64,000 bases of DNA from Candidatus Saccharimonadota bacterium (GTDB taxonomy: Bacteria > Patescibacteriota > Saccharimonadia > Saccharimonadales > Saccharimonadaceae): contig JAFWNB010000003.1 of the NCBI GenBank assembly GCA_017545505.1, forward strand, positions 76,830-140,829. The letters run 5' to 3'. Made by a program: the position numbers and the translations under genes. Under the pieces are notes generated by a model. It was not told where the DNA came from, made no database searches, and saw only the letters and a program-made list of their open reading frames with translations. Every line of letters starts with the position of its first letter. The stretch's first letter is position 1. Positions 11,758 to 46,161 of the stretch are shown here, in pieces.

Positions 11758-11982
11758 ATGGCAGAAAAATCTGAAAAGTCCGAAAAAGGTAAAAGTGGTG
11801 CAGGTAAATTCTTTTTAGGCGCTCTACTTGGTGGTATCGCTGGAGCAGTCGCTGGTAAATTTATCAAAATTGGCGCAGATGACGGCGGCGAAGAAATTGA
11901 AGAAAAATGCAATTGCAAAGGTAAATGTGATTGCAAAAAAGAGCCAGAAAAGAAACCGGAAGAAAAAAGTACTAAGAAATGA
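11758..11982 (+). CDS. YtxH-like small protein
   Basis: GKFFLGALLGGIAGAVAG motif, charged tail, SD aggagg. Confidence 0.6.
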   Translation: MAEKSEKSEKGKSGAGKFFLGALLGGIAGAVAGKFIKIGADDGGEEIEEKCNCKGKCDCKKEPEKKPEEKSTKK

Positions 11983-14900
11983 AATTAAAGCCTAGTGATT
12001 TTGTACACCTACACAATCACACGCATTATTCTTTACTGGATGGGCTAACTAAAATCCCAGAACTTGTTGATTTTGTTAAAAAAGATGGCATGGAAGCCGT
12101 AGCCGTTACAGACCATGGCACTATGTCTGGTTTGGTAGAGCTATATAAAGAATGTAACGATAAAGGAATTAAACCAATTCTCGGTCTTGAGGCTTATGTT
12201 GCAGCTCGCAAAATGACAGACAAAGACCCAGCTCACGATAAACAAAGATTCCACATTACTTTGCTTGCCATGAATAATCAAGGTTATGAAAACCTTTGTC
12301 GGATTATGAGTAATGCAGAAGAATATGGTAAATATTACAAACCTCGTACAGACCACGACGAGTTAGAAAAATATAATGAAGGAGTCATATGTCTCTCTGG
12401 TTGTATGGGGTCAGAAATCTCCGAAGCTATTCGTGCAAACGACGACAAAAGAGCATTAGACCTGATAGAGTGGTATAAAAATACCTTTAAAGACCGTTTT
12501 TACCTAGAAATGCAGGACCATGGCCACCCGAAATCCTCTACTCATTCTGAAGAGCAAAAGAAAGTTAACGATTGGCTTATGGCGCACGCCAAAGAACTAA
12601 ATCTTCCACTCGTCGTTACCTGCGATGCTCACTATTTAAAACACGAGGACCAAGATGCGCACGAAGTTTTACTTTGTATTGGTACAGCCGCATATCTTTC
12701 TGACACTAATCGTATGAGCTTAAAAGATTACGACCTCCATGTTATTTCGTCGCAAGAAATAATTGACCACTGGCAAGATACCTGCCCGGAAGCCGTGTTG
12801 AACACTAAAAAAATCGCCGAGCGCTGCAACGTAGATTTGCAACTTGGTCGTATTTTGATTCCGAAATTTCCAGTTCCAGATGGTGAAGACGAAAAAACGT
12901 ATTTAGACAAACTAGTTTTTCAAGGTCTAACTCATCGTTACGGCGACAAAAGTCTTGAAGAAGCCACGAAACTAGACATAAAAGCTTGCCGCAAAATACT
13001 AACTGAAGTCGATAAAAAACGTGACGACGACCATAAAATACTCCCGCGCATCGACTATGAACTGTCTGTAGTAGATAAAATGGGCTATAATGGCTACTTT
13101 TTGATTGTGCAAGACTTCATTAACTGGGGTAAAAGCCAACGAATCGTTTATGGCCCAGGCCGTGGCTCTGCAGCTGGCTCAATTTTAGCATACGCTCTTA
13201 GGATAACTGACCTAGACCCCCTCAAATATGATCTTCTTTTCGAAAGATTTCTAAATCCAGACCGTATTAGTATGCCAGATATCGATACCGATATTCAGGA
13301 TACTAGACGCGACGAAGTAATTGAATATTGTACAAGAAAATATGGTGAAGCAAGAGTATCAAACATCGCAACCTTTGGTAAAATGATGGCTAAAAACGCC
13401 GTACGAGATGTCGCACGCGTACTAGAAGTACCCTACGCTGAGGCAGATCGCTTGGCAAAGCTTGTCCCAGATCCAGTACAAGGTCATCATGTACATCTCG
13501 CTGATGCAATTAAAGACGTACCAGATCTAAAACAAGAATATGAAACCAACCCCACCTCTAAAGAAGTTATAGATTTTGCTTCTAGACTGGAAGGAACCAT
13601 TAGGAATCACGGCGTTCACGCATGTGGTGTTATCATCGCGCCAGATGATTTGGTTAAGTTCTTACCGCTAGAAGTTTCCGCTAAGGGTCCAATCGCTGCC
13701 CAATTCCCAATGGGTCAAGTCGAAGAACTAGGTCTGCTTAAGATGGATTTTCTTGGCTTGTCTAACCTTTCGGTTATTAATAATGCCTTGCGTATGATTC
13801 GCAAAGTCTATCATAACGATATAAACTTATCCAATCTTCCATTGGACGACAAAAAGACCTACGAACTACTACAACGCGCCGAAACCACCGGTGTATTCCA
13901 ATTGGAATCTGCCGGTATGAAACGGTACTTAAAAGATCTCAAAGCTTCTACCTTTGAAGATATTATCGCTATGGTGGCATTATATCGTCCAGGACCAATG
14001 CAGTTTATTGATTCATTTATTAAGAGAAAACACGGCGAAGAAAAAATCACCTATCTTCACCCTGGTCTAGAAAATTCGCTTAAAAACACCTACGGGATTT
14101 TAATTTACCAAGAACAGTTCATGCAGATTAGTAAGGAATGGTGTGGCTTTACTGGCGGCCAGGCCGATACTTTACGTAAAGCCGTAGGAAAGAAAAAAGT
14201 CGATCTCATGAATAAGGTCAAACCGGAATTCATTGAAGGGGCAATTAAAGTTGGTGGGGCAACTAAAGAAATTGCCGAAACTTTCTGGGATCAGTTGCTA
14301 GAATTTGCGAATTATTGCTTCAATAAGTCACATGCCGCATGTTACGCTTTAATAGCCTATTGGACAGCCTACCTAAAAGCGCATTACCCCGATGCCTTTA
14401 TGGCGGCACTTATGACGGCAGATATGCGCTGGACCGATCGCCTTGCTATCGAAATCGCTGAGTGTAAAAAAATGGGATTAAAAGTATTAGGCCCAGATAT
14501 CAACGAGAGCTATGGTGATTTTGGCATCGTAGGCGGTGAAAAAACCATACGCTTTGGTCTTTCTGGTATCAAAAACATGGGCAAGGCCTTAGTAGAGGAA
14601 TACGTCATACCAGAGCGCGACAAAAATGGTCCGTTCAAATCTGTTTGCGATTTTGCTAAACGAGTAGATTCCACTAAATTTAATAAAAAATCCTGGGAAT
14701 CCGCCATCAAAACCGGTGCATTTGACCGTTTTGGATCTTCGCGCTCAGATTTATTGTTTAATCTAGAAGCTATTCAGGCTTATGGAGCTAAAATTCAAAA
14801 AGATGTAGGTTCTGGCCAAACTGATTTATTTGGTATGATGGGCGAAGCTGGGGCAATCCCAGAAGTAGAAATCAAACCCGCTCCAGTACAACATCCAGAC

Positions 14901-15695
14901 AAAGAGTTACTTCTTTGGGAACGCGATTTAATGGGGCTTTATCTTTCAGCCCACCCACTAGATAAATACGACACTTACTTCGAAGAACAAACCCATCCAA
15001 TGTCTTTAATAACAGCCGAAAATGACAACAAAATTGTAACAATCGGCGGAATTATCACGACCGTACGTACCATTTTAACGAAAAAAGGCGATAAAATGGC
15101 CTTTGTTAAAATAGAGAATAAAACCGACGAAACCGAATTTATAGTTTTTCCGAGTATATTTGAAGAATTTGGAGGAAAACTAGTAGTCGACAACGTCGTT
15201 AAAGTGAGAGGGCGCGTCAATGCTAAAGATAAAAATGGCAACGTTACTTCTGACGCTAAAATACTAGCAGAAGCTGTAGAATTGATTTCGGACGAAATCC
15301 TAGAAAACTATAAATCAACCGGCACCAAATTAGCCGCGCCAATCACCGCGCCAAATCAAGGTCAAAAAAGAGGTCGCTCATCAGCCGAAAGAGTCTATAA
15401 TAAAACGCAAAAGGATTCTTCAATACCAGAAGAAAAACATATTTTAAAAGAGCCACCCAAAGACCCCCGTAAAGAACGCTTATATATTTTAATTAATAAT
15501 CCAGAAGACACGGAAACACTAACCGCCATTCGCCGCCTAGCAGACATCTACCTCGGGATGCAAGAAGTGATATTAGTATTGAAAAATGGCGAAGAAAAAC
15601 GCCCACTCCGTATGCCATTTAAAGTTGAAGTAAGTGAAGAATTACTTACAAAACTGAACGATTTAGTAGGCGCAGACAACGTCAAATTATGCTAA
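11979..15695 (+). CDS. dnaE: DNA polymerase III alpha subunit
   Basis: PHP FVHLHNHTHYSLLDG, GPGRGSAAGS, MPDIDTD, FNKSHAACY, OB fold. Confidence 0.98.
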   Translation: MKLKPSDFVHLHNHTHYSLLDGLTKIPELVDFVKKDGMEAVAVTDHGTMSGLVELYKECNDKGIKPILGLEAYVAARKMTDKDPAHDKQRFHITLLAMNNQGYENLCRIMSNAEEYGKYYKPRTDHDELEKYNEGVICLSGCMGSEISEAIRANDDKRALDLIEWYKNTFKDRFYLEMQDHGHPKSSTHSEEQKKVNDWLMAHAKELNLPLVVTCDAHYLKHEDQDAHEVLLCIGTAAYLSDTNRMSLKDYDLHVISSQEIIDHWQDTCPEAVLNTKKIAERCNVDLQLGRILIPKFPVPDGEDEKTYLDKLVFQGLTHRYGDKSLEEATKLDIKACRKILTEVDKKRDDDHKILPRIDYELSVVDKMGYNGYFLIVQDFINWGKSQRIVYGPGRGSAAGSILAYALRITDLDPLKYDLLFERFLNPDRISMPDIDTDIQDTRRDEVIEYCTRKYGEARVSNIATFGKMMAKNAVRDVARVLEVPYAEADRLAKLVPDPVQGHHVHLADAIKDVPDLKQEYETNPTSKEVIDFASRLEGTIRNHGVHACGVIIAPDDLVKFLPLEVSAKGPIAAQFPMGQVEELGLLKMDFLGLSNLSVINNALRMIRKVYHNDINLSNLPLDDKKTYELLQRAETTGVFQLESAGMKRYLKDLKASTFEDIIAMVALYRPGPMQFIDSFIKRKHGEEKITYLHPGLENSLKNTYGILIYQEQFMQISKEWCGFTGGQADTLRKAVGKKKVDLMNKVKPEFIEGAIKVGGATKEIAETFWDQLLEFANYCFNKSHAACYALIAYWTAYLKAHYPDAFMAALMTADMRWTDRLAIEIAECKKMGLKVLGPDINESYGDFGIVGGEKTIRFGLSGIKNMGKALVEEYVIPERDKNGPFKSVCDFAKRVDSTKFNKKSWESAIKTGAFDRFGSSRSDLLFNLEAIQAYGAKIQKDVGSGQTDLFGMMGEAGAIPEVEIKPAPVQHPDKELLLWERDLMGLYLSAHPLDKYDTYFEEQTHPMSLITAENDNKIVTIGGIITTVRTILTKKGDKMAFVKIENKTDETEFIVFPSIFEEFGGKLVVDNVVKVRGRVNAKDKNGNVTSDAKILAEAVELISDEILENYKSTGTKLAAPITAPNQGQKRGRSSAERVYNKTQKDSSIPEEKHILKEPPKDPRKERLYILINNPEDTETLTAIRRLADIYLGMQEVILVLKNGEEKRPLRMPFKVEVSEELLTKLNDLVGADNVKLC

Positions 15696-15705
15696 AAAAT
15701 AAAAC

Positions 15706-15801
15706 TGTCGAACCAACTTCGACAATTTTTGGCAATAATTACCACTGTTATTTGCAATTTTGCGATTAATTATTTACTTTTTGTCAAATTTAGTATATAA
15801 T
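15706..15801 (+). repeat. Promoter block copy 1 (palindrome + TTTACT-17-TATAAT)
   Basis: Near-identical to 18558-18652. Palindrome tgtcgaa-ccaac-ttcgaca at 15706-15724; -35 at 15773-15778; -10 at 15796-15801. Confidence 0.85.
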
Positions 15802-15937
15802 TAGCACAGTTCAAAAAAATGAACTAGTCCATTAAAAAAGAAGGGTTTCGACCTTTCGCGACAAATATTCCTCCAAGTAAACTTGGAGTTTTATATATAA
15901 GTTGTCAAGTTGAAAACAAATAGAAAGGAGAGACATT

Positions 15938-16129
15938 ATGAAGAAAATGTCCAACGAAACCCCGAAGATCCGCAGAGCGAAGCAGGCGACACCGCCGCCG
16001 CTGCCTCCCAGGAGAGAAAAACCGGCACCTCCGCCGCTTCCTCCTCGGAGAACAGAACAGGCGCCCCCGCCGCTGCCTCCCAAAAGGAAAAAAACGGCAC
16101 CCCCGCCGCTTCCTCCTCGGAGAAAATAA
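15938..16129 (+). CDS. 63-aa Pro/Arg-rich peptide with four PPPLPP(R/K)R repeats
   Basis: SD aaggag 8 nt upstream; 36-nt repeat units with synonymous Pro codon variation. Confidence 0.7.
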   Translation: MKKMSNETPKIRRAKQATPPPLPPRREKPAPPPLPPRRTEQAPPPLPPKRKKTAPPPLPPRRK

Positions 16130-16138
16130 ATTAGGCAT

Positions 16139-16485
16139 AGATCTGTCACCTAAATGGGATACCATTTAGGTGATCCGACCTTAAGTCGGATCTTGTCCCC
16201 AGCTTAGCTGGGTCTCATGGAGCGAAAAAAGCCAAGAAGACAAATCTTGGCGATGCGCACGCCAAGATAAACTCTTACTCTTTGGTGGACGCACCAAGAG
16301 ATGGCTTTATAAGCAGTGAGACAGATCTGGGAGCCCGCGTAGTTACGCAATATCATTCCGGAGTCTTCCTATCTAGTAGAGATTATCTCACTGGATAGGA
16401 ACGTTCTCCGAAGGCGCCCCCCACACGCGACCTTCTAGCTGATATCGGCAGAAGGATAGTGACGAAAGGAGAAATCCTTCGCGTA
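16139..16485 (+). ncRNA. Unidentified structured RNA, copy 1
   Basis: ~125-nt core (16199-16322) near-identical to 19178-19303 with compensatory changes; shared 3' domain acgcg...agga-GAAA-tcct...cgcgt. Confidence 0.7.
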
Positions 16486-16494
16486 AACCAGTTA

Positions 16495-16526
16495 CCCCCG
16501 ACTCAGAAAGAGTTGGGGGCTTTTTA
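16495..16526 (+). terminator. Intrinsic terminator of cassette 1
   Basis: cccccgactc-agaaa-gagttggggg then cttttt. Confidence 0.8.
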
Positions 16527-16595
16527 TGCTATAATTAAGCTAGACCCGGCGAGGATAACCTCTTAAACTCTTACGACCGAGTAGCAGGAGGCTAT

Positions 16596-16817
16596 ATGGA
16601 AATCAATCCTTTAACCACCATTATTCGCGATCGAAATAACACTAAAAAATACTTCATCTATACTTTCTATTCCGAACAGACAAAAAAATGGGAAACCGTT
16701 GCCGTAAAGAAAGTTAATTATGAAAGTATCAAGGAAGTCAAAATGGAACAATCGTATTCCCGCGAAGAAGCTCTTCGCCACCATTTAGACTTCATCGCCC
16801 ACTACAGTGTTTTTTAG
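16596..16817 (+). CDS. Hypothetical protein (73 aa)
   Basis: SD aggagg, own terminator hairpin at ~16836-16870. Confidence 0.65.
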   Translation: MEINPLTTIIRDRNNTKKYFIYTFYSEQTKKWETVAVKKVNYESIKEVKMEQSYSREEALRHHLDFIAHYSVF

Positions 16818-16986
16818 AGTTTTTTGATAGCACCTTCAGCCCAGATTGTATCTGGGCATTTTTCTTTTTTTATCATTTATTTTAAATATATACAAATTTA
16901 TATAATAGATATTGACTATTTATACACTATATGATATAATCAAAAAGTAAGCCTTTAGGCTAGGTACTTTTACAGTGCAGGATTAC

Positions 16987-17052
16987 TGATTGCAGAATAG
17001 GGTTTGACGGGATAATTACATTTACATCTCTTTTAATCCTATTCTGCAATCA
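16987..17052 (+). promoter_or_regulatory. Long leader hairpin upstream of the sigma4/alpha-CTD gene
   Basis: Perfect 15-bp stem tgattgcagaatagg/cctattctgcaatca, downstream of a TTGACT...TATAAT promoter. Confidence 0.5.
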
Positions 17053-17142
17053 ACTAAATCAAAAAAGGCGTAGCAAGGAGACGCTTTCCAGGTTTAAAGC
17101 AGAGTAACTTGAAAAAAATCGAAAAGAAAGGCGAACGAAAAA

Positions 17143-17973
17143 GTGGGAAAAAGCAGAGAAAAATATAATATCTTCGGAACTAACAAAGAAACTTGGGGCC
17201 AGCGCCTCGCAAATGCTATTTGCGGGCATTCATACGAGTATGGTATACTTGGATGCTTCCTTACGGAAGTGACCGAACTCCTTAAGGCAAAACTCTCTGA
17301 AAGAGAGTTCGAAATTGCCGTAAGGTGTTTCGGTATAAATGCCGCAAATAAAAGAGAGACTCAAAAGGCTGTAGCTGCCAGTTTGGGTATCGCGGAGTCC
17401 CAGATGAGATCCACATCCAAAAAGGTTGTGGAAAAAATCAACCGGACCTGCGGTCCAGACCTGAGGGGGCTAATGCTGAAACCCGATGAGGTCTCGAAAA
17501 GAATCGTCGGCCTAGAACACGAAAACGAGCGACTCAGAAAGCAAGCGGTGGACCCCGCTAGCTTCACGCGCCTTCAGCAGGAGGCCAAAAACGCTCGGAA
17601 CGCCTATGCCGGCGAAAAGGCCAAGCGCGAAAAGCTTGAAGCCGAACTTGCTAAGCTTGTCGCCTCAGTCGAGAAGCTCAAGGAAGAGCGCCGAGTCGCT
17701 ATTAACGAAAAGGCGAAAGCCCTGAGCAAATACGACGCAATAGTAACTCAGGTAACCAACGTGATAACAGCAACGATAGACTTTAACGTCACGTTAGAGA
17801 CCTTTGACTTCAGCGCGGAAACCATGAATGAGCTCACTAGAGCTCATATCGTGAGTGTAGAAGCTCTTCTAAAGAGAGACTCTCACTCCCTCCGAAGATT
17901 AGGAGTGAGCAATAAAGCGATCTCTGAAATCATGGAGAAACTGAGGCTTAAGGGCTTCGAGCTGACCGCGTAA
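17143..17973 (+). CDS. sigma70 region 4 HTH + coiled coil + RNA polymerase alpha-CTD-like fusion protein
   Basis: LSEREFEIAVRCFGI...TQKAVAASLGI (sigma4 pattern); LETFDFSAETMNELTRAHIVSVEALL...EIMEKLRLKGFEL (alpha-CTD pattern). GTG start; terminator ~17997-18028. Confidence 0.6.
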   Translation: MGKSREKYNIFGTNKETWGQRLANAICGHSYEYGILGCFLTEVTELLKAKLSEREFEIAVRCFGINAANKRETQKAVAASLGIAESQMRSTSKKVVEKINRTCGPDLRGLMLKPDEVSKRIVGLEHENERLRKQAVDPASFTRLQQEAKNARNAYAGEKAKREKLEAELAKLVASVEKLKEERRVAINEKAKALSKYDAIVTQVTNVITATIDFNVTLETFDFSAETMNELTRAHIVSVEALLKRDSHSLRRLGVSNKAISEIMEKLRLKGFELTA

Positions 17974-18083
17974 AGTCCTACATACAACCTTGCACTAACC
18001 AGCGAATATTAATTCGCTGGTTTTTTTATAAAAATGGCCCGTTCAATGAACGAGCCGGTTTTGATGAAAATGGTTTTGGTAAA

Positions 18084-18386
18084 TTAATAATAATTAATTG
18101 CCTTTTTGTAACTCGTATCGTCCAAGATTTCCCTGATAGTCTTCTCGACAAAAGGAAAAACGGTCTTAGTTTCTGCATCTATAAACCCGATTTTTATTAA
18201 CCTATTAATTATAATAGAATCGAGAATCGGTTCCGCAAAAACACAATACGAACCAAGAGCCATAAAGGCATCGAAATCCTTCGCAACTAAAATGAGCGTC
18301 CTACACAGTATTTCTCCATATGTTAGCTCTTTCGAATCGTTACGGTTCGGCTTTCGGCCTTTCGCAAAACTAATAATATCCCCCAT
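18084..18386 (-). CDS. Hypothetical protein
   Basis: ATG 18386 after ggag; hairpin terminator ~18032-18062. Confidence 0.55.
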   Translation of the reverse strand: MGDIISFAKGRKPNRNDSKELTYGEILCRTLILVAKDFDAFMALGSYCVFAEPILDSIIINRLIKIGFIDAETKTVFPFVEKTIREILDDTSYKKAINYY

Positions 18387-18557
18387 CTTATTATCTCCCA
18401 TCTGACAAAAGTACAATACCTACAGTTAAAAGTATATTATATTAATATAACACATAATATATTTCTAGTCAAGAAGACCGCAATAATTTGTCATCAATTA
18501 TATTTCAAATAGCTAGAAAAGATATTGGAAAGGTATATGATAAGTATAGATAGGATT

Positions 18558-18652
18558 TGTCGAACCAACTTCGACAATTTTTATAAAAATTACCCCTGTT
18601 ATTTGCAATTTTACGATTAATTATTTACTTTTTGTCAATTTTAGTATATAAT
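18558..18652 (+). repeat. Promoter block copy 2
   Basis: Near-identical to 15706-15801; -35 at 18624-18629, -10 at 18647-18652. Confidence 0.85.
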
Positions 18653-18786
18653 ATATCACAAGCTTACATAATTAAGCTAGAAATTTAAAAAGGAGGAGAT
18701 TATTCGCTTCATTTTCTTTTCGAAGGAATTTCCTTCGAAATTTCACATATAGAAACAATAAGGAAATTCACGAAAAGGAGATGCAT

Positions 18787-19062
18787 ATGTTCTACAAAAT
18801 CGCAAGCTTTCGGTATTATGATGGAGCCATCGACGAAAAAGCAAGCTTTTACGTCAAAGAGGAAGATATTTCTTCCTTCGTCAACTACCTGATAAAATGC
18901 GGTTATTCCGGCGAATTCGATGGAATTAGCGGTATCTACACCATAAAATCCTTCGATAGATATAATGATCCTATACATTCAACGATCATTATAGACCGGA
19001 TTCGCATCTTTAACAGGAAGAGGTGGCATTCATTTGTTCGCGATTCAGTGCCATCGTCTTGA
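18787..19062 (+). CDS. Hypothetical protein (cassette 2 cargo)
   Basis: SD aaaaggag 6 nt before ATG 18787; no similarity to the cassette 1 peptide. Confidence 0.6.
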   Translation: MFYKIASFRYYDGAIDEKASFYVKEEDISSFVNYLIKCGYSGEFDGISGIYTIKSFDRYNDPIHSTIIIDRIRIFNRKRWHSFVRDSVPSS

Positions 19063-19139
19063 CGTTGGGCTACTGACTTATCGGGAAAACCTTGCGGTTC
19101 GGTCGAAATCGTAGGAACGTTTATAAGACGTGATCGACC

Positions 19140-19384
19140 TTCTTCTATTGCTTAAATTATCGCCAGTTTAAGCATAACCAGTTCTACTGGGTCCCACGGA
19201 GCGAAACAAAAAGCCAAGAAGACAAATCTTGGCGGTGCGCACGCCAAAATAAACTCTTACTCTTTGGTGGACGCACCGAGAGAAGGCTTTATAAGCAGTG
19301 GGGTAGAAGAATTCCAAAAAGGCGGATAAAATCCGAACGAACGCGCTCCGATAAGGAGATACTAACAAAGGAGAAATCCTCGCG
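19140..19384 (+). ncRNA. Unidentified structured RNA, copy 2
   Basis: Homologous to 16139-16485; closing helix ttcttcta/tagaagaa; compensatory changes in several stems. Confidence 0.7.
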
Positions 19385-19387
19385 TAG

Positions 19388-19412
19388 GGAAAAGCCGCCT
19401 GAGCGGCTTTTT
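19388..19412 (+). terminator. Intrinsic terminator of cassette 2
   Basis: aaaagccgc-ctga-gcggcttttttt. Confidence 0.85.
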
Positions 19413-19484
19413 TTCATGCATTTAATATAATTCGTAATAAGATACCACTAAATGATTCTTTATCTATTATGGTATAATTAATCT

Positions 19485-19901
19485 ATGAAAAAGCCCAAAA
19501 CCCTAGATTCGGTAACAGTCAATCGTAAAGCAAAATACGATTATATTTTGGGCGATGAACTCACCGTAGGCATGGCACTTTCTGGGCCCGAAGTTCGCTC
19601 TATTCGCGATCATCACGTTCAGCTTAAGGGTTCATTTGTTACCATCAGAAACTCAGAGCTCTGGTTAAATAATCTTACTCTCGGCGCCGAAACTACCCGC
19701 AATATCAAGCTCCTCGCCACCAAAAAACAAATTAAAAGCCTGGAGCGCGAAAAGGTCGCCGGCTCCACCATCGTACCAGTCAAACTCCTTGGTGGTGCTC
19801 GCCATATTAAACTCGTAATTGCTATTGGCAAAGGAAAGAAAAAATATGACAAACGCGAATCAATCAAAAAACGCGACATAGAGCGAGGACGCTATGCTTA
19901 A
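19485..19901 (+). CDS. smpB: SsrA-binding protein
   Basis: NRKAKYDY, G..L.G.EV.SIR, IGKGKKKYDKRESIKKRD. Confidence 0.95.
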   Translation: MKKPKTLDSVTVNRKAKYDYILGDELTVGMALSGPEVRSIRDHHVQLKGSFVTIRNSELWLNNLTLGAETTRNIKLLATKKQIKSLEREKVAGSTIVPVKLLGGARHIKLVIAIGKGKKKYDKRESIKKRDIERGRYA

Positions 19902-20679
19902 AATCTATTCATGGAACGTAAATGGCTTGCGCGCGGTCATCAAAAAAGGAGCATTTCAGGATTTTATTACAAAAGAACACCCTGATATTTTATGTTTACA
20001 AGAAACTAAAGCTAAACAAGGTCAAGCCGAAATCGATCTTCCAGAATACGAAGAAATCTGGAATTCGGCTGAGCGACCAGGCTATTCTGGTACTGCAATT
20101 TTTACCAAAATTAAACCTTTATCCATCAAAAACACTCTCGAAACAAACAAAAATTTCGAAGATCAATTCGGTAATCCACTTACCGAGGGTCGCGTCCTTA
20201 CTGCTGAGTTTGAAATATTCTTTTTAGTTAACGTCTACACTCCAAATTCAAAAAACAATTTAGAAAGGTTAAATTTACGCGAAAAACTCTGGGATAAAGA
20301 ATTCTTGGAGTATCTCAAGAAACTGGAGAAGCAAAAACCCGTGGTAGTTTGTGGCGACTTTAACGCAGCTCACCAAGAAATAGATATCGCCAGACCAAAA
20401 ACCAATCATCACTCCGCCGGCTTCACTGACGAAGAAAGAAGGGGAATTACCAACTACATCAATGCCGGTTTTATCGACACTTTTCGTTATCTTTATCCAG
20501 ATTCCGTGCGCTATACTTGGTGGAGCCACTGGGGTAATGCCCGCGCTAATAATGTTGGTTGGCGTATCGACTATTTCTTCGTTTCTGAATCCCTCAAGAA
20601 TAATCTCAAATCCGCCGATATTTATGAAAAAATCATGGGATCCGATCATTGCCCAATTTCAATCGAACTGGAGTTTTAA
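19894..20679 (+). CDS. xth: Exodeoxyribonuclease III / AP endonuclease
   Basis: SWNVNGLRA, LQETK, GDFN, GWRIDYF, SDHCP. Confidence 0.95.
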   Translation: MLKIYSWNVNGLRAVIKKGAFQDFITKEHPDILCLQETKAKQGQAEIDLPEYEEIWNSAERPGYSGTAIFTKIKPLSIKNTLETNKNFEDQFGNPLTEGRVLTAEFEIFFLVNVYTPNSKNNLERLNLREKLWDKEFLEYLKKLEKQKPVVVCGDFNAAHQEIDIARPKTNHHSAGFTDEERRGITNYINAGFIDTFRYLYPDSVRYTWWSHWGNARANNVGWRIDYFFVSESLKNNLKSADIYEKIMGSDHCPISIELEF

Positions 20680-21452
20680 TGGATTATTTTGAAAAAATCG
20701 AAGTTCAAAAAGAAGATCTTACTTGGAACATACCAGAAACCAATCAAGGTTCCGTCAATGTAATTGGTGGAAATAGCAAACATTTTAAAACAGAAATCAA
20801 AACAACAGAATTTATAAGTAAATACCCTATCAAATCCCTAAAATTAATCCTACCGAACTCGCTAAAATCCCAACTACCTAATTTGCCAAATTTTACCTTC
20901 TTAGAGTCAACCGATTCAGGCTCATTTGCAAACGAAAATGAACTACTAGATTCTTTTAATTCTGCAGACTACAACCTTTTACTTGGAGACTTATCAAAAA
21001 ACACTATCACAGAAAAAGCGGTAGCAGCCGCGTGCAAAAACTCCGAAAAACCTCTGCTAATTACGCGCGATAGCATAGATTTAATCGCTAGTCATCAACC
21101 AGAAAAAGTATTAATGAATGAAAATGTTACCCTCATGGCCTCCATGGCGCAATTACAGAAACTATTTCGTGCGGTCTATTATCCTAAAATGTTGCTGCTT
21201 AGCCAATCCCTTATTCAAGTTGCCGAAACACTGCATAAGTTTACTCTAAGCTACCCCACTAAAATAATAACTCTCCATAGCGACCAAATTCTCATAGCAG
21301 AAAATGGGCAAGTAAAAGCTATCCAACTCGCAAAAACAAACTACAACGCTCTTTCTTTTTGGCAAGGAGAAGTCGCCGCCAAAATTGTGGCCCTTAATCT
21401 CTATAATCCAAACAATTTCATAAATGCCACAATTAGTGCGTTTTTTTCTTAG
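20679..21452 (+). CDS. YjeF C-terminal / carbohydrate-kinase-like protein (divergent)
   Basis: GSVNVIGG N-terminal pattern. Start ATG 20679 overlaps the xth stop (TAATG). Confidence 0.45.
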   Translation: MDYFEKIEVQKEDLTWNIPETNQGSVNVIGGNSKHFKTEIKTTEFISKYPIKSLKLILPNSLKSQLPNLPNFTFLESTDSGSFANENELLDSFNSADYNLLLGDLSKNTITEKAVAAACKNSEKPLLITRDSIDLIASHQPEKVLMNENVTLMASMAQLQKLFRAVYYPKMLLLSQSLIQVAETLHKFTLSYPTKIITLHSDQILIAENGQVKAIQLAKTNYNALSFWQGEVAAKIVALNLYNPNNFINATISAFFS

Positions 21453-22071
21453 CTAACTCTTTTTCAATTTCTACTGCATCACGCGAAACGTTTTTGCGAC
21501 GCTGTCTTAAGAAAAACCAGATAAAGACAAATATCGAACAGCCAAAGGCAAACAAAACTATTTTAACCGGCAATGGCCAGCTTGTAGCAAACAAAATAAA
21601 AGCATTTAATATTCCAAGACAAATTGTGTATAGATATCGCCTAGCTAAAACAATTTTCTTCGCTAATGGAAAATTTCTCCTAGTTAAAGAGTTTTTAGTA
21701 CAATTATCCGGATGTCCAAATAGTTTTCCATAAACAATTAATTCAATTGTGCCGCAAATTACTGTGTAATAAATAATCACAATCAGGCCAGCAATTACAT
21801 TAATACGTAACGTGACAAATAACACCTGGGCAACCGCTAGTAACGCATCTGAAACCATATCATATAATGCCGCATATTTACGATATTTTGGAATTTTATT
21901 CTTTGGAAATGGCCATTTTCGTGCGCAAGTCCCATCGAAAGTATCCGTAAGCTCTGCTGTCAAAAAAATTACAAATGCCGCATCTGCTGATCCGCCCGCA
22001 AAAGCCAGAACAAGTAATACAATGCCTAAAATAAATCTCGATAAAGTTAATAAATCTGCTAAATATCTCAT
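21433..22071 (-). CDS. CDP-alcohol phosphatidyltransferase family protein
   Basis: ADLLTLSR, TDTFDGTCARK, YDMVSD signature. Confidence 0.85.
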   Translation of the reverse strand: MRYLADLLTLSRFILGIVLLVLAFAGGSADAAFVIFLTAELTDTFDGTCARKWPFPKNKIPKYRKYAALYDMVSDALLAVAQVLFVTLRINVIAGLIVIIYYTVICGTIELIVYGKLFGHPDNCTKNSLTRRNFPLAKKIVLARRYLYTICLGILNAFILFATSWPLPVKIVLFAFGCSIFVFIWFFLRQRRKNVSRDAVEIEKELAKKKTH

Positions 22072-45123: not shown

Positions 45124-46161
45124 TTGATGGACAAAAATGCGGAAATTCTGAAAAAAGCAATCTCTGGCAGCCTAAAAATTATCGAACAAGACCGCGAAAA
45201 GGAAATTATTTCCCGTCGTTTTGGACTCAACGGTCCAAAGGAAACCCTCGAACAAATAGGTGAATTACTTTCAATCACTAGGGAACGAGTACGCCAACTA
45301 GAGAAAGCAATTTTGATTCATCTTCAAATAGCCGCAGAGGACAATCAAATTCCAGAATTAGCTGCCGCCGAAAAACTTCTTGTTCGTAATCTTACTGAAA
45401 TGGGTCGCGTAGCTAGACTCGACGATCTAGCTGACAAAATTTATGAGCACAAAACCAATGCCAGAGAAAAATCCGGTCTCTATTTTATTGCAACATTTTC
45501 CAAAAATCTTACAATCGTCGAAGAAAACGATAAATACTACGCTTCAATTGGTATAGCAGAATATGGTAATAGCCGTAAAATTCGCGACCGAATTGATGAA
45601 ATCGTTCAAATAATTAAAGCTAACAAAAAACCGATGACCTTAGATGAACTTGACGAAAAACTAAATTATGAACACCCTGATCATATTAAAGCCATCGCGT
45701 CAACTTCAAAATTGCTAGCTACCCTTAACAATGTCTGGGGATTGGCTAAATGGCCATCCGTTAATCCTAAAAACATTCGTGATAAAATTTACGTTATCCT
45801 AGAATCCAAAAAAGAACCAATGCATTTTTCTGAAATTGCTAAAGAAATTAAAGATTCTAATTTTAAACGTAAAAATGTCACCATTCAAGCAATCCATAAC
45901 GAATTAATCAAAGATGAACGTTTTGTCTTAATCGGACGTGGTATTTATGCGCTTTCTTCCTGGGGCTATAAAAAGGGAACTATATCTGATATTATCAAAT
46001 CAATCTTAGAAAAATCCAATGAACCATTAACACGCGAAGAAATCGTCAAACAAGTTCTAAAAGTTCGCAAAGTTAAAGAAACTACTATCCTCTTAAACCT
46101 CCAAAACAAGAAACTATTCAAGAAAATTGATAAAAATTTATATACATTAACGGAAGTCTAA
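45124..46161 (+). CDS. sigma70 region 4 HTH + HARE-HTH (RNAP delta-like) domain protein
   Basis: RRFGL...ETLEQIGELLSITRERVRQLEK; IRDKIYVIL...PMHFSEIA...AIHNELIKDERFVLIGRGIYAL. Confidence 0.75.
   Translation: MMDKNAEILKKAISGSLKIIEQDREKEIISRRFGLNGPKETLEQIGELLSITRERVRQLEKAILIHLQIAAEDNQIPELAAAEKLLVRNLTEMGRVARLDDLADKIYEHKTNAREKSGLYFIATFSKNLTIVEENDKYYASIGIAEYGNSRKIRDRIDEIVQIIKANKKPMTLDELDEKLNYEHPDHIKAIASTSKLLATLNNVWGLAKWPSVNPKNIRDKIYVILESKKEPMHFSEIAKEIKDSNFKRKNVTIQAIHNELIKDERFVLIGRGIYALSSWGYKKGTISDIIKSILEKSNEPLTREEIVKQVLKVRKVKETTILLNLQNKKLFKKIDKNLYTLTEV

Follow-up and report, generated by a model that had tools for sequence, protein, structure and literature searches.

What might a small accessory protein, assembled from one module that resembles a sigma factor and another that resembles the alpha subunit of RNA polymerase, do in a Saccharibacterium, a bacterium of very small genome in which the control of transcription has been little studied? 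The question is raised by a gene at positions 17143-17973 of a stretch of 64,000 nucleotides (here called the window) from a Candidatus Saccharimonadota bacterium, taken from contig JAFWNB010000003.1 of assembly GCA_017545505.1. A sequence-only reading of the window had proposed that the gene encodes a fusion of a sigma70 region 4-like helix-turn-helix, a long coiled coil and a segment like the C-terminal domain of RpoA (alpha-CTD), and had gone on to suggest a factor that redirects promoters or acts as a decoy, possibly on the duplicated promoter of two flanking RNA cassettes. The proposed architecture is now well founded at the level of a protein family, and the link to the cassettes has found little support. 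As for function, we tentatively favour, at a little short of even chances, the reading that the gene product is an oligomeric transcription regulator of the variable island in which it lies.

A family with two modules of the transcription machinery

Taken on its own, the window protein yields faint matches to Pfam, all of them under the curated cut-offs: Sigma70_r4 at residues 49-99 (E 0.009, 15.9 bits against a cut-off of 24.1), RNA_pol_A_CTD at residues 214-267 (E 0.0023, 18.1 bits against a gathering threshold of 23.8) and the helix-hairpin-helix (HhH) model AF1548-like_C (E 8.9e-5, 23.0 bits). The NCBIfam models SigE and RpoA are matched at residues 49-101 and 205-274, each at E 1.9e-5 and both far under their full-length cut-offs. 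A word-index search returned only three relatives; a HMMER profile search from these three against 1.84 billion representative proteins gave 99 matches at E<=1e-3, of which 52 reached E<=1e-10 and about 50 were end-to-end, in proteins of ~290-300 amino acids. The family-level comparisons rest on an alignment (A3) of 46 full-length members, the first row of which, P0001, is one residue off the window protein.

It is at this level that both modules are recovered. RNA_pol_A_CTD is found in 23 of the 46 members at E<=0.01 (best 1.5e-9) and Sigma70_r4 (PF04545) in 21 (best 3.6e-7), while the PHROG sigma-factor family phrog_351 and the NCBIfam rpoA model are each matched by 25 members and sigma70-ECF by 18. 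Against solved structures, the family profile finds the alpha-CTDs of Bacillus subtilis (3gfk_B, 5.6e-10) and Thermus (1doq_A, 1.4e-8), region 4 of Staphylococcus aureus sigmaA (4g6d_A, 2.4e-4) and many coiled-coil proteins too. A search of all open reading frames (ORFs) of the host genome with the family HMM places the gene itself first, RpoA next (by its CTD only, 4.4e-8) and then the primary sigma factor (by region 4 only, 8.2e-7), followed by one coiled-coil protein and one second sigma4-bearing protein. Pfam confirms the identities of the host RpoA and primary sigma, located at C6:13254-14204 and C4:67259-68233 of the host genome G000, and it is their CTD and region 4 that constitute the best matches of the family profiles in the host genome outside the gene itself and coiled-coil proteins. 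Aligned to these two host proteins by hhalign, the alpha-CTD and sigma region 4 modules receive probabilities of 85% and 68%, respectively.

The segment between the two modules has the features of a coiled coil. Residues 140-210 are hydrophobic at 80% of the a and d positions in one register, the hydrophobicity of the segment has a power peak at a period of 3.5, and residues 112-210 hold only two prolines and two glycines, all of which amounts to a crude test of heptads and periodicity. Matches of the segment to coiled-coil families include myosin and crescentin. The window protein has the shortest coil of the family, with a gap of ~36 columns against most members of the alignment. At the other end of the sigma4-like module, the first 45 residues form a family-specific segment with the consensus K.N[IL]FG....T[PA]GQN[LV]..A......GIP.Y.Y, which includes several positions that are among the best conserved in the family (G12 and G34 in 45 of the 46 members, G19 and N21 in 43, I35 in 42).

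Family-level profiles, solved structures, the search of the host genome, hhalign and the heptads thus bear out the three-part architecture of the sequence-only reading, and the profile searches recover both domains for the family, with the window protein alone under the Pfam cut-offs. As judged by homology, proteins of the family begin with the signature segment, continue with the sigma4-like helix-turn-helix and then the coiled coil, and end in the alpha-CTD-like domain. Neither Pfam nor NCBIfam has a curated model that spans the family as a whole, and the only named member of its cluster is a 'hypothetical protein' from a metagenome-assembled genome of Prevotellaceae, on a 4-kb contig.

Residues kept and lost

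In the alignment, both modules keep the signature positions of their folds, without the residues that define the reading of -35 and UP elements. The scaffold of the sigma4-like module is strongly conserved, as G64, R/K71 and K98 (45 of 46 each), E55 and L110 (43), L51 and A78 (42) and Q74 and S89 (40) attest, and a tail like the C-terminal end of sigma factors, KLQ.SPYK.QL..L.PT, is present in most members. The window protein is a divergent member and has no SPYK tail motif. Its recognition helix is rewritten exactly as had been noticed from the sequence: hhalign sets G-I-AESQMRSTS of the window protein opposite D-V-TRERIRQIE of the host sigma, with AESQMRSTS standing for TRERIRQIE. The columns opposite TRERIRQ (AESQMRS in the window protein) vary among the members, with Ser in 40 of the 46 at the last Arg.

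The alpha-CTD-like module has lost its counterpart of a DNA-contact residue. Where B. subtilis has the Arg of LSVRS, Thermus that of LSTRV and the host RpoA that of LTART, the window protein has Glu226; this Arg we take to be Escherichia coli R265, the main contact to the UP element. The six commonest residues of the column among the 46 members are E (19), D (6), G (4), K (4), S (3) and Q (2), which makes it acidic in 25 and leaves Arg outside this list. Acidic residues are also frequent nearby, at columns 219 (30 of 46) and 225 (24 of 46). The Asn three residues past the Arg-aligned column is retained in the window protein as N229, and the Gly of the hairpin is Ser256. The loss of the -35-reading residues together with that of the alpha-CTD Arg argues against a simple copy of -35 and UP-element reading, and would be compatible with mimicry at the level of protein contacts.

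Distribution of the family

The gene is sporadic. It is found at E<=1e-15 in 17 of 369 genomes of the genus of the window (11 of 248 among those of high quality) and in none of 195 genomes from 94 other genera of the same taxonomic family. The 24 genomes from other families of the order gave partial matches only, mostly to RpoA C-termini and three to sigma-like or coiled-coil regions, and 400 genomes across the phylum gave 24 matches, all of them in the C-terminal part of the profile and in ORFs of 304-361 amino acids read as RpoA. Judged by these searches, the protein belongs to an accessory family restricted to the genus. Fourteen of the 17 genus genes encode proteins of 276-331 amino acids, and three (in G698, G611 and G521) encode 385-residue forms with a longer coil. 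Searches by tblastn of 50,697 phage records and 72,556 plasmids, and a pattern scan combined with tblastn in IMG/VR, turned up no relative. Two metagenome loci (L014 and L015) that had been candidates for membership match residues 3-32 only, in DNA without long ORFs, and were set aside as spurious.

The transcription unit and its leader stem-loop

It is evident from dN/dS values of 0.11-0.19 in four close orthologue pairs that the ORF is a real gene under purifying selection. Its frame opens past a TGA at 17110, and its first possible start is the GTG, a start made credible by the alignment of the N-terminus with those of the relatives. A variant of 94% identity (P0002) carries an in-frame insertion of 21 nt (7 codons) within the coiled coil, seen in run X15 at 17522-17525; the DNA sequencing runs in which the stretch occurs come from metagenomes of animal gut or rumen. 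Contigs from one sheep-gut metatranscriptome library span 17185-17993 at a depth of 2.7-5, which gives only a weak hint of expression, as their strand is not visible and DNA may be present in such a library. These contigs leave the leader (16940-17073) and the convergent partner gene described below uncovered, a gap from which nothing is concluded.

By its sequence signals, the gene forms a monocistronic unit of its own, with a strong promoter in front, a terminator behind and a stem-loop conserved in the leader. The promoter is the best promoter-like site in 15600-19600, with 11 of 12 positions, and its -35, TG and -10 elements line up with sequence upstream of homologous genes in three other genomes (G478, G494 and G568). 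The leader that follows folds far better than shuffled versions of itself (z = -4.5). The four leaders that were compared first align from the -35 onward and share a consensus fold of 21 pairs, of which 8 show compensatory changes. Of the 17 loci, 12 have the core AT[CT][GA]C[AG]G at 132-165 nt upstream of the start, with a perfect reverse complement no more than 80 nt away, and the number rises to 14 when one difference of the G-U type is allowed. The same criterion, applied to all 707 kb of the genome, finds two sites, of which one is at the locus of the gene; the further 57 kb of the 17 loci yield no site. The remaining loci hold a different palindrome at the same place of the leader (G576) or no clear one (G623 and G606).

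The 13 distinct hairpins are paired in 253 of 273 cells and changed on both sides at 15 of 21 stem positions, counts that are not independent, as some of the 17 loci are close kin. On the sense strand there are 23 G-T cells against 7 A-C cells, and the distance between the hairpin cores ranges from 25 to 48 nt. This wobble bias, along with the variable spacing, favours a stem-loop formed by RNA, in the leader of the mRNA, rather than a palindromic operator. Global nucleotide identity of the leader against that of the coding sequence was tried as a measure of conservation and proved uninformative, with shuffled leaders scoring about the same. A degenerate version of the hairpin pattern, run on genome and viral contigs, returned chance palindromes, with the family gene in one of the 139 matches listed, on the already known G568 contig.

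Islands, the convergent partner and the flanking cassettes

The host genome comprises 707,176 bases in 7 contigs, with an estimated completeness of 94%, and holds a single copy of the gene. The features of the locus are collected in Table 1. The gene sits within a stretch of 3.8 kb between the genes for DNA polymerase III alpha and SmpB, and its GC content is ~50%, against ~40% in the flanks. In G478 it also lies between dnaE and smpB, with other neighbours, and in G494 the dnaE-smpB gap is 476 nt and the gene pair is found three genes further on. The interval itself is a variable spot: it spans 15696-19484 in the window, measures ~7.4 kb with other genes in G478, and in G494 (L057 4214-4689) holds a small, unrelated ORF on the minus strand; the sequences of the intervals are not similar to one another. 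Between cassette 1 and the promoter of the gene lies a 73-residue ORF (16596-16817, + strand) with a ribosome-binding site and a terminator of its own (16839-16857), for which no family match was found.

Table 1. Features of the gene and its surroundings, in coordinates of the window
Feature	Position	Strand	Remarks
ORF of the sigma4/coiled-coil/alpha-CTD protein	17143-17973	+	GTG start, 276 aa
N-terminal family-specific segment, residues 1-45	17143-17277	+	no Pfam, PDB or NCBIfam match
Sigma70 region 4-homologous helix-turn-helix, residues 46-112	17278-17478	+	base-reading positions replaced; tail like the sigma C-terminal end
Heptad-rich, Ala/Lys/Glu-rich segment, presumed coiled coil, residues 113-210	17479-17772	+	heptads, coiled-coil matches
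RpoA alpha-CTD-homologous helix-hairpin-helix domain, residues 214-276	17782-17970	+	Glu226 at the place of the DNA-contact Arg
Sigma70-type promoter of the gene	16912-16940	+	TTGACT, 17-nt spacer, TATAAT, TG before the -10
Leader stem-loop	16987-17052	+	arms 16987-17013 / 17026-17052; core GATTGCAGAATAGG / CCTATTCTGCAATC; ~100-150 nt upstream of the start codon
Intrinsic terminator of the gene	17997-18022	+	11-pair stem, then T run; RNA-library contigs end at 17993
Convergent partner gene, ~100-110 aa	18084-18416	-	probable start MGDIISF at 18386
Promoter of the partner gene	18472-18444	-	
Terminator of the partner gene	18056-18036	-	
DNA polymerase III alpha (dnaE)	11979-15695		Pfam DNA_pol3_alpha 7.5e-92
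smpB	19485-19901		SmpB 1.3e-32
Cassette 1	15706-16530	+	context only, not shown to belong to the gene
Cassette 1, terminator hairpin and promoter	15706-15801	+	
Cassette 1, ORF	15938-16129	+	63 aa, proline-rich
Cassette 1, conserved RNA core	16199-16325	+	
Cassette 1, terminator	16495-16519	+	
Cassette 2	18558-19410	+	context only, not shown to belong to the gene
Cassette 2, terminator hairpin and promoter	18558-18652	+	
Cassette 2, ORF	18781-19062	+	93 aa, unrelated to the cassette 1 ORF
Cassette 2, RNA core	19178-19307	+	
Cassette 2, end			terminator-like hairpin before smpB

The gene is faced by a convergent partner, a homologue of which stands in the same position at 8 of the 17 loci, with one further locus offering too little flank to judge. 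Among 151 genomes of the genus the partner is nearly exclusive to those that bear the gene: it is found in G000, G478, G494 and G568, in every case beside the gene, and as a weak partial match in G538. The partner protein has no match in Pfam, PHROG, PADLOC or the PDB. Other neighbours recur in part. A Y-family DNA polymerase lies directly beside the partner gene in G676 (L242 1200-2558, IMS 1.7e-30) and in G568 (L058 5658-7109, IMS 4.5e-25), a pair of genes for 131 and 493 amino acids is common to G478 and G676, and another pair, for 205 and 612 amino acids, to G478 and G568. The gene lies in variable islands, which share neither their place nor their content as a whole.

In G000, G478, G494, G568 and G676 the gene has no neighbour for an integrase, a terminase, a capsid protein, a relaxase or replication, and no phage hallmark of PHROG or Pfam is found among 19 neighbours from four genomes. 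The PADLOC defence models match none of 16 neighbours, and the gene itself only through a coiled-coil match to DndD (6.4e-5). Island proteins of ~205 amino acids (L044 12084-12701 in G478, L058 357-977 in G568 and L247 1880-2485 in G538) end in a helix-hairpin-helix (HHH_5, ~2-4e-4) weakly like the C-terminal domain of the family. The idea that these represent the partner fused to an alpha-CTD-like domain was dropped: only 8 N-terminal residues (MAELIQF...) align with the partner, and the C-terminal similarity is weak (E 0.0014).

The two cassettes on either side are duplicates of each other in their terminator hairpin and promoter (91% identical) and in their structured RNA core (93% identical over 100 nt). 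Their RNA has no Rfam match in 14000-22000 at E<=1; it is neither tmRNA, which sits on another contig (88 bits), nor 6S RNA, for which there was no match. The ORF of cassette 1, which is served by a good ribosome-binding site, encodes a strongly basic peptide of 63 residues in which PPPLPP[RK]R occurs four times, and finds no family match. An RNA-library contig over cassette 2 (19043-19385) has a depth of 33.8, more than anywhere else in the 4-kb stretch. In G478 and G676 the cassette RNA has a longer 5' part, and the cassette stands beside a TrmB-like gene.

That the protein acts on the duplicated cassette promoter, as the sequence-only reading had thought possible, gains little from the distribution of the two. 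By BLAST, the cassette promoter is found in 15 of the 369 genomes, against 17 for the gene; 12 genomes have the gene only, 10 the promoter only, and 5 have both (G000, G478, G494, G676 and G677, the last with a promoter match of only 34 nt). An overlap of 5 is above chance (~0.7 expected), a comparison to be read with the bias of BLAST detection towards close kin of G000 and the non-independence of such kin. Linkage is not conserved: 10 of the 15 promoter carriers have no gene, and where both occur they are adjacent in G000, 3.4-4.0 kb apart in G676, ~76 kb apart in G478, ~69 kb apart in G494 and on different contigs in G677. The cassettes do not contain the motif of the leader hairpin. Their promoter has TGCRAT repeats that recall part of one arm of that hairpin, a motif too short to mean anything.

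What the protein might do

An oligomeric regulator of the island, the reading that we favour, would make use of every part of the protein. The sigma4-type helix-turn-helix would bind DNA with a specificity particular to each member rather than TTGACA, the coiled coil would make the protein at least a dimer (and, to judge from the coiled coil, probably just that), and the alpha-CTD-like domain might serve as a module for protein contacts, possibly towards RNA polymerase or a partner protein, because the DNA-contact arginine is lost and acidic residues stand in its place. The leader stem-loop could control the expression of the gene itself at the RNA level, and in this way set the level of the protein. 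Besides the homologies of the domains, the heptads, the purifying selection, the signals and leader stem-loop of the unit, the kept partner and the weak hint of expression, what speaks for such a regulator is that a conserved scaffold with its likely backbone contacts is combined with variable base-reading positions, the pattern usual for DNA-binding families that diversify their specificity. Several observations weigh on the other side. No DNA target emerged from the analysis, and DNA binding is not guaranteed, since the base-reading residues of sigma are not kept. Near the gene a single motif is conserved, and it has the look of an RNA hairpin and not of an operator; the recognition helices do not track the variants of the stem core when compared by eye, and none of the island neighbours has a known function from which a regulon could be guessed.

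The first alternative to be weighed keeps the protein at RNA polymerase and dispenses with the reading of DNA. An adaptor or decoy would redirect or inhibit the host enzyme through protein contacts, with the sigma4-like domain docking on the beta-flap or the alpha-CTD, or with the acidic alpha-CTD-like domain docking on sigma region 4 or on activators. The two domains are indeed homologous to two parts of RNA polymerase that meet at promoters; their DNA-reading residues are replaced while the core positions of the folds are kept; the acidic cluster at columns 219, 225 and 226 lies at the place of the DNA-contact Arg; and the part KLQ.SPYK.QL of the sigma-like tail is kept in most members. Yet the window protein, a divergent member, is without the SPYK of that tail, and alpha-CTD-like domains are a widespread general module, some proteins having 6-11 copies in tandem. 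The RpoA homology is in itself no evidence of mimicry, given that the module is so common. We consider an adaptor or decoy unlikely.

A more far-reaching form of the same thought appears quite unlikely, namely that in this ultra-small epibiont the protein truly mimics parts of RNA polymerase, is antagonised by the convergent partner and is held in check by its own leader stem-loop. The sigma4-like domain would then occupy the beta-flap or capture the alpha-CTD, the acidic alpha-CTD-like domain would capture sigma region 4, and the coiled coil would pair the domains, such that host transcription would be re-routed or shut down when the island is active.

The islands themselves suggest another role, that of an accessory DNA-handling protein of a mobile element, comparable to a small terminase, an excisionase or a partition adaptor, in which an N-terminal helix-turn-helix and a coiled-coil oligomeriser would be joined to a C-terminal domain that recruits a partner enzyme. 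The sporadic presence of the gene at different chromosomal sites, in company with co-travelling genes of no known function, would fit such an element, as would its raised GC content. Neighbours in the ESM Atlas that combine PF04545 and PF03118 are mostly labelled viral as well, a lead only at scores of 0.76-0.86. The absence of hallmark genes from the five neighbourhoods inspected and of relatives from the phage, plasmid and IMG/VR collections stands against it, and we regard this role as distinctly improbable.

That the protein binds the stem-loop of its own leader and so controls its translation or the stability of its mRNA is very improbable: the stem-loop is specific to this leader, conserved by sequence and pairing and found essentially nowhere else in the genome, but neither sigma region 4 nor the alpha-CTD is, to our knowledge, an RNA-binding fold, the stem core is much more conserved than the putative recognition helix, and a host factor such as an RNase could equally read it.

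Comparison with known systems

If the protein is simply a helix-turn-helix regulator of its island, it represents an ordinary though unnamed family. Even so, as an accessory protein it offers a concrete, small candidate for regulation by parts derived from RNA polymerase, and the unit, with its promoter, covarying stem-loop, ORF, terminator and convergent partner, is unusually well defined for uncultivated organisms. The same small genome holds another modular protein that is, by its domains, related to RNA polymerase: a second sigma4-based protein is encoded at 45124-46161 (+ strand) of the window, with Sigma70_r4 at residues 23-67 (7.8e-11, above the cut-off) and HARE-HTH at residues 222-280 (1.6e-12). 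In the titles and abstract openings returned by full-text literature searches, there is no mention of a sigma4 and alpha-CTD fusion protein or of such factors in Saccharibacteria, and none of a functional study of the Atlas clusters or of the tandem alpha-CTD proteins considered here.

The closest relations are the two parts of RNA polymerase themselves. With sigma70 region 4, as represented by PF04545, the host sigma and S. aureus 4g6d, the family shares the motifs L..E..LL.R.FG, EIA..LG and A..KL; unlike it, the family has the 45-residue segment ahead of the domain and other residues in the place of TRERIRQ. The host sigma matches models for regions 1.2, 2, 3 and 4 in the same Pfam library, whereas the family is without regions 1.2, 2 and 3 (no match to Sigma70_r2 or Sigma70_r3 in the window protein or the 46 members), and the protein is therefore not a sigma factor. 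With the alpha-CTD of RpoA (PF03118), the likeness extends from end to end over the whole domain of ~60 amino acids. The differences are the acidic residue that stands for the Arg of LSVRS and LTART and the Ser that replaces Gly in the hairpin of the window protein, which also has no counterpart of the alpha N-terminal domain (RNA_pol_L / RNA_pol_A_bac) present in the host RpoA.

A similar vocabulary of domains is used elsewhere. Several of the ESM Atlas clusters with PF04545 and PF03118 are labelled Uroviricota, and some are of ~290 amino acids; with scores below 0.9 they are leads and not homology, and none was recovered by sequence search in the phage and viral collections. Metagenomic proteins with 3-11 tandem Pfam RNA_pol_A_CTD domains (P0011, P0050, P0052, P0058, P0061, P0066 and P0068) indicate, from their domain matches, that outside RpoA the alpha-CTD fold serves as a module that can be repeated. 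What these clusters and proteins have in common with the family is the vocabulary of a helix-turn-helix, in their case of the sigma4, GerE or HTH_17 type, and one or more alpha-CTD-like domains, and P0066 combines three alpha-CTD copies with a weak N-terminal match to Sigma70_r4.

Finally, phages encode factors that commandeer sigma region 4 or the beta-flap, namely AsiA/MotA and gp33 of T4 and gp67 of phage G1. Unlike the family described here, these are not built from homologues of sigma4 or the alpha-CTD, and there is no sequence relation between them and it. They could serve as a model by functional analogy, and only if the protein acts on RNA polymerase through the network of contacts between sigma4, the flap and the alpha-CTD.

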